Positions 25,901 to 28,900 of a DNA stretch of 33,438 nt are shown here, in pieces (within the stretch, counting starts at the first letter, position 1; every line of letters begins with the position of its first letter). The stretch is from positions 1 to 33,438 of IMG/VR virus record IMGVR_UViG_2531839440_000004, one strand, 5' to 3'. A program made the position numbers. The stretch is from a virus. Lineage: Duplodnaviria > Heunggongvirae > Uroviricota > Caudoviricetes.

Positions 25901-28900
25901 GTCTTTCTGATTCTGGCGTCTGGTTATTTTGTTGGCCAGATCCGATGGTGGTGAGGGCACGATGAGAACATGGGGCCGCGTCACCGACGCGAACGGCAAC
26001 AAAAAATGGGTTGCAGTAGAATCTGACGCCAACGGTGATTTCTCCTACGGCTGGCTGACGACGCTCATTCAGACGTTAAAGCTGGGATTGGGGGAGTCGC
26101 CGTTTTACGCGAATTACGGTATTCCTGCGCAGCAGTGCATCGTGCAGCAGATTTACCCGGACTACTATGTGAACATGGTTCAGCAACAGTTTGCCGGCTA
26201 TTTTGCATCATTGGCAATTTCAAAGGTAGATGGAGCAGATAACCCCACCTATAACATCGATGTTGTGTTTTTTAATGGGACCAGTTACCGGACGCAGGTG
26301 CCGGTATGAATCACAGTTTTATGATAAAACTTTTACCTTGGTTTGGAGTGCTGTAGAGAGATATTTTAGGGGAGGCGAGTAATTTTCTAAGCTGGAGCAT
26401 ATTGACATATATTATTTCGGATTTGCAAAATACAGATTGTAACCATGGAGGAGACAAGCATGGAAAATTTTGCAAATAAGTTAAAAATACACACAGAGCA
26501 TGTTGCAAAAATGGGGGTGTTTTGTACAACTGAAGAAACGACAAAACAAGCACTCATTATGCCATTACTAGATATTCTTGGTTTTACTCCGTATGATCCA
26601 AGAAAAGTCAAAGCTGAGTATAGTGCTGACTTCCCCGGGGTTAAGGCTAATGAACGGGTTGATTACGCTTTATTTTGTCATGATGTTCCTGTGATGTTCA
26701 TTGAGGCGAAATCGTTTTCAGAACAAATTGATAATCACTGCCCACAGCTATCAAGATATTTTAATTCAACACCGGAAGTTACTATATCAGCCATTACAAA
26801 TGGTGTTGAATGGCGTTTTTTTACGGATTTGAAACAAAAAAACATAATGGATTCAACGCCGTTTTTAAAATTAAGAATGGATTCTCTAACTCACTCCGAT
26901 ATTACACAATTATTTCGTTTTCGTTATGATAAATTCAAACCAGAGGCTTTACGGACACTGGCTGAAGAAAGTGTTTATTTGAATTCATTTACTAAAACAA
27001 TCAGTTCTAGTCTTCGTGAAGTTGATCTGGAGTTTGTTCGATATGTCGCTAGTCGTTCAAATATTGAGAGGCAACTTAATCAGAGATTTCTTGAGTTCGT
27101 GACTCCATTAGTTAAACAGGCCGTTGAGCGCGCTGTTAGCGCAATGGTGGTTTCCGGGCTATCTACACAACCGGTAGAGCAAACTAAAGAAAATGATGCA
27201 ACGGATACACAAGTTAATAACGCCATTGTTGATGAAGAAAACCCCAACATAATAACCACAGCCAAAGAATTGGAGCTATTTGAAAGGGTAAAACAAATCA
27301 TACAAACAGAAGATAATATAGAATATAAAGATACTGAGTCATATTTCGGTGTACTATTGAATGGTAAAACTAATAGATGGCTGTTAAGATTTTATGATAA
27401 AAAATCTTCATTTATAACTTTACCTATTTCGCTTAGTGAAGTTCAGTTGAATGAAATAAGACGAGCTCGACTTGATACGGATGGTAAAAGGATACATATA
27501 ACTAATCCGGAAGATATACTTCGCATATCTGGTTTGATTCTGGATTCATACGAGTATGTTAAAAATGATGATAATTTCCGCCGAGGGTCCAGAGTGAGCA
27601 GTTTAGAAGAGGTTGAATAAGTAAAAAACCCGCGAAAGCGGGTTTTTTAATGGAGTAAATATGTCAGAAATACCAATTACTATGACCAGTGCGGGTGCGC
27701 AGCCTACGCCACCCAATGATTTGCTCGCGAATCTTATCACTAGAGTTGCTGAAAAAGTACCTGGATATACAGCCAACCTTCCGGCGGGGCTTATTACAGA
27801 CCTTGCCAGCACGGCTGTCGGGGCGCTGGCATTAATAGACCAGGCGCGGGTGGACCTTATTAACTCCGTAAGCCCATACGGCGCGAATATTCCGTTACTG
27901 ATGCAACTCGGAAACATATATGGAGCACAGAAGGGATTAAGTACAAATACGGCGGTATACGTGGTGTTTGAGGCGTTGCCGGGGTTTGGTATCCCTAAAG
28001 GATTTGTTGTCGGTGACGGCAACTACCAGTATGCGGTTTCCCGCGATACCGTGGTACCGGAAAACGGGCAGACTGAGCCAGTCTACTGTGTGGCCACAAC
28101 GTCAGGCTCATGGGCTGTACCGGAAGGGACCGTGACGCAGGTCATTACCTCAGTACCCAAAGACCAGCCTGTAAAATGCACCAACTTTACCGCAGGAATG
28201 CCCGGTCAGGAGGCGCAAACGTGGGCATCTTACCGCGCCGAAGTCATGGAGTCCGGCATGTTTGGTGTGCAGGGAACACCGGATTGCTTTAAAGCTATGC
28301 TCAAATCAGTAAGCGGTGTGCGAGAAAACCTGATTTCTTTCCGGCAGTCGTCGCTGGGGAAATGGGTTGCGGTTGTTGGTGGCGGTGATCCGTATGATGT
28401 GGCTTATGCGATTTACAAATCTGTACCGGATATTTCGAAACTGACCAACGATGTAAGCAATCCATCCGGTGCGGTAGTGGAAAAACGCACGGTTTCAATA
28501 ACCGTTTCGCCGGACGTTTATCAGGTGCCTTTCGTTATCCCGTCATCACAAAACGTCATGGTGCTAATCACCTGGAACACGGTGTCTGATGATTATGTTG
28601 ATCCGGCGGGTATTGCTATGGCTGTGCAGCAAAACGTTGCTGATTACATCAATTCAATTGAAGTCGGACACCCGATAAATCTTCTGCGTATCCAGGATAT
28701 TTTTACCAGTTCTGTCAGGTTGCTGGTTGATGCGACGTTGATCTCAACAATCAGTGTGAGCATTGGTATTAACGGTCATATTGTTCTTCCGGCGAAAGAC
28801 ACAAGCCTGGTTTATGGCGATACCTATTCCTATTTTTCAACGGTGGCATCACAGGTTCAGGTCAACAAGTATGCAATATCTGACTGAGAAAATTCTCCCT

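Follow-up and report, generated by a model that had tools for sequence, protein, structure and literature searches.

A compact HsdR-type nuclease in a baseplate cargo slot of a Rac-type prophage: a candidate exclusion gene with largely repressor-linked homologs

The IMG/VR virus record IMGVR_UViG_2531839440_000004 (33,438 nucleotides, analyzed over its full length and hereafter called the window) is a Rac-type lambdoid prophage of E. coli, with an integrase gene at positions 1 to 1236 on the minus strand and with RecT and RecE/ExoVIII present. Inside its baseplate module lies a 1.33-kb cargo cassette (26321 to 27652, plus strand) with an intact gene for a nuclease of 386 amino acids (aa) (26460 to 27620, plus strand; PHROG 4225; RefSeq WP_000426903-type), the subject of this report. 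To the left is a small conserved tail/baseplate-module gene (phrog_7986; 25929 to 26309, plus strand) that is also present in Escherichia phage Rac-SA53 and in “Actinobacillus phage vB_Apl-pPE4,” and to the right is a baseplate J/gp47-family gene (Pfam Baseplate_J, phrog_6; 27661 to 28887, plus strand) that is likewise kept in relatives. The flanks are ~93 to 97% identical in Rac-SA53 and pPE4, and the insert is unmatched: in boundary alignments, homology breaks at 26320, ~10 nt past the stop codon of the small upstream gene, and restarts at 27653, ~8 nt short of the J start codon (ATG). Instead of the nuclease cassette, both relatives carry minus-strand cassettes of 1.0 to 1.8 kb, composed of an antirepressor gene and one or two hypothetical genes.

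The cassette differs from its surroundings in composition. GC content is 0.31 to 0.41 across positions ~26200 to 27700 and 0.47 to 0.56 in the flanks, and a sliding 1,332-bp scan of the whole window (mean, 0.473; standard deviation, 0.04) places the minimum, ~0.36, at the cassette, so the AT-rich insert that the original prediction had noted between the tail gene and J is indeed the lowest-GC 1.3-kb stretch of the window. Among the Enterobacterales, the GC content of the gene always lies 12 to 14 points under that of its surroundings. The open reading frame (ORF) is open from 26445, and its start is fixed at the ATG at 26460 by the N termini of homologs (MENF), which confirms the 386-aa gene as first delimited. 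The expression signals that had been proposed for it can all be located, two of them as predictions: a sigma-70-type promoter (TTGACA, an 18-nt spacer, and CAAAAT; 26402 to 26431, plus strand) with 10 of 12 consensus matches, the best such site in 25700 to 28000; a ribosome-binding site, GGAGGA, read directly from the sequence (26448 to 26453, plus strand), 6 nt 5′ of the ATG; and, right after the stop codon, an intrinsic-terminator-like hairpin (27622 to 27649, plus strand). The hairpin, AAAAAACCCGCG-AAAG-CGGGUUUUUU, has a predicted stability of −17.4 kcal/mol (z = −5.7; 0 of 200 shuffled sequences fold as well) and, being flanked by runs of A and T, could work in both directions; a simple terminator scanner did not list it. 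A search of the cassette ends for repeats yielded trivial short ones and no ends resembling attachment sites or those of transposons.

The position is not reserved for the nuclease. A survey of 5,426 complete E. coli genomes places the tail module in about 90 (at a threshold of ≥90% identity); the nuclease cassette is present in 25 of these modules, and the ~65 others have an antA/antB-type cassette in every row inspected, with spans of varying length. Because close relatives have the same flanks but antirepressor cassettes between them, the slot separating the small baseplate gene from J is a cargo hotspot with exchangeable contents, and the earlier description of the gene as foreign, self-contained cargo is borne out. 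In three genomes, a copy with 78% identity is found at another location, in a Shiga toxin (Stx) prophage, where it lies on the other strand in the interval from Q to the methylase/tRNA/stx2 region; DNA similarity to this copy is limited to the ORF, which suggests mobility at the level of the ORF itself. Such mobility, the sporadic occurrence in close relatives, and the sharp boundaries of a free-standing nuclease gene set exactly between two conserved genes are what might be expected of a selfish element akin to a homing endonuclease, which would cut cassette-free relatives when these co-infect or superinfect the cell and would spread through recombinational repair, with any exclusion of phages a by-product. 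However, no empty site was found among the slots inspected in Rac-SA53, pPE4, and representative E. coli rows (rare empty alleles may exist), and the other alleles carry other cargo. As a separate observation, the pPE4 record (PP818812.1) is 91 to 96% identical in DNA sequence to the window (24360 to 26320 and 27653 to 30993) and to Rac-SA53; this similarity is odd for a Pasteurellaceae phage and might reflect a misassigned host or the induction of pPE4 from an E. coli lysogen.

The first 140 aa of the protein (26460 to 26879, plus strand) make up a PD-(D/E)xK nuclease domain of the HsdR_N/RecB type. Pfam matches HSDR_N (E = 5e-14) and HSDR_N_2 (E = 2e-9), both over aa 25 to 128, and finds nothing further in the 386-aa protein, with no ResIII or helicase region. 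The catalytic residues lie in the motifs RVDYALF and FIEAKS and are encoded on the plus strand at 26661 to 26663 (D68), 26703 to 26705 (E82), and 26709 to 26711 (K84). In an alignment of 66 homologs (31 to 88% identical, from Enterobacterales, Clostridia, and one archaeon), all three are invariant, as are D57, E65, R99, Y100, N102, N114, G115, T122, and D123. A QxxxY motif following ExK is a hallmark of the RecB family; here, it reads Q96-L-S-R-Y100, with Q96 present in at least 90% of the sequences and Y100 in all of them. AlphaFold2 models the domain confidently (predicted local distance difference test [pLDDT] score of about 90), and its closest structural matches are a Vibrio vulnificus HsdR fragment (3h1t; score, 11.8), DrdV (10.9), BpuSI (10.5), and EcoR124I HsdR (7.3), followed by nucleases of the Hjc, Cas4, NucS, and lambda-exonuclease types (about 6 to 7). 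Neither the family profile nor the N-terminal domain alone gave a meaningful match in sequence searches of the PDB. Judged by alignment and model, this is, as had been proposed from its motifs, a genuine PD-(D/E)xK nuclease domain of the HsdR type, and its active site is intact and invariant among the homologs; because this active site is under strict selection, the protein very probably cuts nucleic acid.

The remaining 240 aa had been described as matching nothing recognizable, which holds for Pfam but not for structure. They consist of a helical middle region, a linker, and a confidently modeled C-terminal domain. In the middle region (aa 141 to 232; 26880 to 27155, plus strand), AlphaFold2 predicts helices at 145 to 232 with pLDDT values of about 70 to 80; F159, A168, E169, F192, R204, and P216 are conserved among the 66 homologs, and the region may be a connector or a dimerization element. 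The acidic linker that follows (aa 233 to 255; 27156 to 27224, plus strand) appears disordered (pLDDT <50 at 233 to 253) and has a net charge of −3, with a family mean of −5.6. The C-terminal alpha/beta domain (aa 256 to 375; 27225 to 27584, plus strand), when modeled alone, reaches a pLDDT of 88 and a predicted template modeling score of 0.79 and adopts the “double-wing” fold seen in YdhG/DUF1801, YjbR/DUF419, and the C-terminal domain (CTD) of MotA. Its structural matches are a YdhG-like/DUF1801 protein (9t2w; 9.0), the DUF419 protein DR2400 (6.8), E. coli YjbR (6.4), and the DNA-binding C-terminal double-wing domain of T4 MotA (6.3). Identity to these groups is 8 to 14%, and the domain differs from them in being acidic and in bearing a family-specific motif, KDT..Y...W..R..D (K290, D291, T292, Y295, W307, R310, and D313), in which Y295, W307, D291, and R310 could line a pocket. 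A scan of 28 C-terminal domains from the family against Pfam gave scattered noise at most. In comparisons of homologs with 66 to 87% protein identity, synonymous sites are saturated, and nonsynonymous divergence (pN) is 0.05 to 0.29 in the N-terminal, middle, and C-terminal regions; the linker alone evolves almost freely. By this measure, all three structured parts are under strong purifying selection.

Public sources label the protein “type I restriction endonuclease (subunit R),” and its RefSeq name would imply a truncated HsdR left over from a type I enzyme. Beyond the RefSeq and UniRef names, this origin could draw on the Pfam HSDR_N match and on a weak local match to the NCBIfam type I equivalog NF008521 (E = 3e-4), which is far below threshold, at 19 bits versus a cutoff of 729. 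We consider it effectively refuted: homologs number in the thousands and share a uniform length of 340 to 400 aa and the same three-part architecture, the ResIII/helicase region is missing, hsdM and hsdS were found neither in the window nor in ~20 homolog contexts examined, and purifying selection extends to the parts that are not HsdR-like. Family uniformity and purifying selection likewise rule out a pseudogene fragment of HsdR. The type I name is strictly wrong because there is no motor domain, the score on NF008521 is 19 rather than 729 bits, and hsdM/hsdS neighbors are lacking. The cleavage domain does resemble in structure those of type I HsdR and of type IIG/IIL enzymes (3h1t, EcoR124I HsdR, BpuSI, and DrdV), but those enzymes are 800 to 1,100 aa long and have no YdhG-like C-terminal domain, whereas the protein encoded here has no superfamily 2 motor, methyltransferase, or specificity domain.

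The family to which the protein belongs is abundant rather than exotic. PHROG 4225, annotated as “endonuclease,” is matched over its full length (E = 9.5e-149; aa 1 to 370 against profile positions 1 to 357 of 357), and a search of 1.84 billion cluster representatives (clustered at 50% identity) recovers 3,348 family clusters at E ≤ 1e-3 and 289 at E ≤ 1e-30, nearly all of them 340 to 400 aa in length. The family is present on well over 1,000 E. coli/Salmonella contigs: the exact protein of the window was recovered from 697 contigs, and at least 1,000 encode a variant nearly identical to it. All three modules are present in 122 of the 150 best representatives (the remainder being mostly fragments), and the middle region is found in 138. 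Nine full-length members have a different C terminus; the domain in this position is DUF4357 in 2 of the 150, above the Pfam threshold, and in one member, it weakly resembles the C-terminal domain of SeqA (E = 0.0016, below the Pfam cutoff).

Single-chain, modification-dependent enzymes such as PvuRts1I/AbaSI and MspJI, which join a nuclease to a reader domain, offer the nearest parallel in design. Like these Type IV enzymes, the protein is a methylase-less single chain in which a PD-(D/E)xK-type cleavage domain is accompanied by a separate beta-rich domain; unlike them, it has a YdhG/YjbR/MotA-CTD-like fold rather than an SRA, EVE, or PUA domain, and there is no detectable sequence relationship. 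The rare DUF4357 variants bring the family closer to Type IV components of the GmrSD and McrB types, as this domain is reported in fusions with GmrSD, GIY-YIG, and T5orf172 proteins (PMC4619093) and is listed as one that often accompanies McrB homologs in fusion proteins (PMC11090510). Because DUF4357 replaces the C-terminal domain here and joins GmrSD/McrB-type proteins elsewhere, the C-terminal position looks, by analogy, like a swappable target-recognition slot of the kind found in Type IV restriction enzymes.

Most homologs are located in the lysogeny module. In seven annotated phages from four phyla, the gene comes directly after CI, or after CI and ImmA, in the same orientation, and it often precedes the integrase gene. 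In Klebsiella phage KpF5, it is ~170 bp downstream of a CI-type repressor gene on the same strand; in pneumophage IPP25, the order is repressor, small ORF, nuclease gene, and integrase; in Enterococcus EG-TP1, a DNA-binding protein and an ImmA-type metalloprotease precede the gene, with the integrase further on; in Fusobacterium FNU_1P, the order is CI, nuclease gene, and integrase; and in Corynebacterium Juicebox, the gene stands between the repressor and a metalloprotease. Clostridium CWou-2020a has the gene after two helix-turn-helix (HTH) regulators, the unannotated record of Lacticaseibacillus P7.1 has the same layout, and in Porphyromonas phages, the gene follows HicAB near an “acr candidate” gene. 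A relative is encoded on 455 IMG/VR contigs, of which we classified the best 80 by context. Fifty of these have an HTH or HTH-plus-S24 repressor gene immediately upstream on the same strand, usually divergent from a cro-like gene; 22 are near-identical copies in the baseplate slot; two are next to Q; single loci follow an Arc/Mnt-type gene beside ant, adjoin HigBA plus ant, or follow tape-measure and lipoprotein genes; and three are cut at a contig edge. Thus, 50 of the 55 resolvable loci outside the baseplate slot place the gene directly 3′ of a CI-type repressor, and these span at least 10 repressor lineages, which is the fairer statistic because many of the 50 are near-identical KpF5-like phages. 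The window copy, in its baseplate slot, is not itself repressor linked.

The position of homologs, immediately after the repressor gene and in its orientation, implies expression in lysogens. Genes downstream of cI include known exclusion genes, rexAB in lambda and stk in 933W, with which the homologs share position and orientation; the proteins themselves are unrelated (a nuclease as opposed to membrane and kinase systems), and the window copy departs further in occupying a tail-module slot with its own predicted promoter. Taken together, the contexts describe an autonomous module that temperate phages hold in places transcribed during lysogeny, either the repressor operon or moron slots bearing promoters. 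This placement strengthens the case for a defense nuclease, for which we regard the gene as a strong but unproven candidate. A structural tail or baseplate protein is ruled out by the nuclease fold, by the lack of the gene in relatives that have other cargo at this site, and by the location of most homologs in the lysogeny module.

The same distribution bears on the homing-type element introduced above. A nuclease with a separate recognition domain is typical of homing enzymes in general, but a main location in the CI operon, seen in several phyla and with at least 10 repressor lineages, is not how homing elements are distributed; the gene also remains intact in decayed prophages that cannot co-replicate with relatives, and uniform length with strong purifying selection over distant phyla points to a function at the level of the host or prophage. 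We therefore regard selfish homing as quite unlikely.

Linkage this tight to CI and to ImmR/ImmA genes could instead mean that the protein is part of the lysogeny switch or of prophage maintenance, as a sensor of DNA damage or structure tied to CI/ImmA or as an addiction-type toxin. The antirepressors in the same baseplate slot of relatives are themselves switch components, and one homolog follows an Arc/Mnt-like gene beside ant. Such a role is nevertheless improbable in our estimation: the copies in the window, the Stx prophage, Gilliamella, and the Clostridium chromosome have no link to a repressor and are better described as an autonomous module, no conserved antitoxin-like partner accompanies the gene, and the repressor-proximal slot is, as in lambda rexAB, a classical site for exclusion genes.

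A further alternative is that the nuclease serves the lytic program or counterdefense of its own phage without protecting the lysogen, for instance, by degrading host or competitor DNA, by processing recombination or replication intermediates, or by attacking host defense loci. RecB/HsdR-type nucleases do also work in phage recombination and host-DNA degradation, PHROG places the family in the category “DNA, RNA and nucleotide metabolism,” and the window copy lies in the late (tail) region on the late-gene strand, where antiterminated late transcription would cover it in intact relatives. In most phages, however, the gene shares a strand with the repressor gene, and the early lytic genes are on the other one. 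The window copy has its own promoter-like site and terminator, close relatives do without the gene and have other cargo in its place, and it persists where a lytic cycle is impossible. We consider a purely lytic role unlikely.

Persistence of this kind is seen in Citrobacter koseri, where cI and the nuclease homolog are kept intact in a ~4-kb prophage remnant between purB and phoPQ, and in the defective prophage of the window. Every C. koseri place examined has the same remnant contents, namely, a terminase fragment, a small ORF, the cI-type repressor gene, the nuclease homolog, and a RecT fragment, and the repressor-nuclease pair looks domesticated. In Clostridium, the homolog is followed immediately by three tandem genes for helicases of the Schlafen-group-3/DUF2075 type and by a MazG-like gene, a cluster that may be a defense island. 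These Schlafen-like helicases and MazG belong to a set of moron- or defense-like neighbors that elsewhere includes Q/stx, HicAB, and HigBA plus Ant. No conserved partner gene or methyltransferase was found in any homolog context examined.

The reading we favor, at a probability of roughly 55%, is that the gene encodes a restriction-like nuclease, made in lysogens and lacking a methylase, that keeps out the DNA of incoming phages. The cassette would be a horizontally acquired moron in the baseplate cargo hotspot of a Rac-type lambdoid prophage; its promoter would drive transcription in the lysogen, and its terminator would keep the gene apart from the late operon. In lysogens, the enzyme would cut incoming foreign DNA, mainly that of phages, with the middle part serving in dimerization and the C-terminal domain providing target recognition or activation. 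Because the protein has no methylase, it is not a classical restriction-modification system and must tell its targets apart in another way; the cue would most likely be something that host DNA lacks, such as modified bases, as for Type IV enzymes, or else a DNA structure or a protein specific to phages. By this means, the prophage would guard its host, and itself as well, against superinfection, as is done in lambda by rexAB, which occupies the corresponding position. Two steps in this scheme are ones that we infer: from a nuclease expressed in lysogens to one that cuts incoming phage DNA and from a YdhG-like domain to a reader.

Several points weigh against exclusion as the function. A nuclease without a methylase leaves the sparing of the host chromosome without explanation. 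All domains are mildly acidic (pI of about 5.1 to 5.8 for the C-terminal domain), unlike a classical DNA-binding module, and the C-terminal domain may bind a protein or a small ligand instead of DNA. For this reason, we treat a DNA-reading role as conjectural and did not adopt confident DNA binding by this domain. The promoter is predicted from its resemblance to the consensus, and its −10 element is weak. In Gilliamella, the homolog is a lone insert among housekeeping genes, and because it stands alone there, a cellular role is possible. None of the 5,027 models of PADLOC-DB v2.0.0 matches the protein at E ≤ 1, and the searchable literature yielded no paper or experimental evidence on any family member. 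The original prediction had seen in the gene an uncharacterized defense architecture; no PADLOC model indeed covers it, but as PHROG 4225, present on well over 1,000 E. coli/Salmonella contigs, it is not rare. DefenseFinder reportedly includes a single-gene system, FS_HsdR_like, said to come from E. coli phage-inducible chromosomal islands studied by Fillol-Salom et al. in 2022 in Cell; judging by its name, this is an HsdR-like anti-phage protein of an enterobacterial mobile element, and it may or may not represent the present family.

More tentatively, and at odds we would put against rather than for it, the family might constitute a new Type IV-like class of prophage immunity: a pan-phylum, single-polypeptide, methylase-less restriction enzyme with a YdhG/double-wing reader for modified or phage-specific DNA. 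Spread through Proteobacteria, Firmicutes, Actinobacteria, Fusobacteria, and Bacteroidetes, it might then rank among the most widespread repressor-linked genes. Were the protein a defense nuclease, a function would be assigned to a gene in thousands of prophages, now misnamed as a type I restriction subunit, in hosts that include pneumococci, enterococci, clostridia, Klebsiella, Salmonella, Shiga toxin-producing E. coli, and Porphyromonas. The restriction-enzyme toolkit would gain a new reader-domain fold, the repressor-proximal “rex slot” would be found to carry a conserved nuclease across phyla, and the site between the small baseplate gene and J would be a second cargo hotspot in Rac-type phages, with a bearing on host range in phage therapy and on how Stx phages and lambdoid phages in general spread. 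If the protein is not defensive, its tight linkage to CI would indicate a new element of lysogeny control.

The prophage that carries the cassette is incomplete. An identical cassette is present in E. coli F9792 within a complete-looking prophage at the Rac site, relative to which the window lacks ~16.2 kb that include the terminase, portal, capsid, tail, and tape-measure genes and part of a baseplate-hub gene. At the deletion junction (~24360, within the region 22464 to 24998), a gene for a TET-associated glycosyltransferase (TAGT)-like protein (23647 to 24447) is joined to the middle of the hub gene, whose remnant occupies 24432 to 24998. This junction was not found in any of the 5,426 complete E. 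coli genomes, but because two IMG/VR contigs share it, it is a real but rare variant. What had been taken for a baseplate operon is thus part of a defective prophage, in which the nuclease gene is still intact.

Several other features of the window and its relatives merit description. Rfam matches above the gathering score (1557 to 1735; 7275 to 7326, minus strand; 16412 to 16583; and 19857 to 20007) comprise RalA, DicF, sok-type antitoxin RNA, and two tRNAs; RalA is the small RNA antitoxin of RalR, the DNase toxin of Rac. Upstream of the TAGT gene (Pfam, 1e-34; PHROG, “glucosyltransferase”; RefSeq, “GREB1-related protein”) is a ParB_N-domain gene (22884 to 23675), the N-terminal part of which matches the PADLOC model MTase_II (9e-37). 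In intact relatives, this pair lies directly upstream of the terminase genes, and it may be a phage DNA-modification module, which would be relevant if the nuclease senses DNA modification. The region with the second-lowest GC content in the window (13495 to 16024, minus strand) includes an ORF (15326 to 16024, minus strand) that matches Pfam Beta_protein and PADLOC PD-Lambda-2_C/beta, at 232 aa compared with ~375 aa for the profiles, and another (13495 to 14067, minus strand) that matches the PADLOC model cll (2e-28); the two look like a gop-beta-cII/PD-Lambda-2-type defense locus, possibly truncated, in the early region.

In F9792, the gene right after that for the large terminase subunit, which is deleted in the window, encodes 478 aa and is named “anti-CBASS protein Acb1 family protein” in RefSeq; its position suggests a portal or portal-fusion gene. 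Between the bppV-like and small baseplate genes of the window is a 193-bp stretch (25762 to 25954) with a 45-aa ORF (25817 to 25954) resembling a transmembrane peptide. The stretch recurs, with ~84% identity, in some 870 E. coli genomes and in many Stx phages, where it is mostly unannotated, and in phage CP-1639 it lies directly upstream of Rz.

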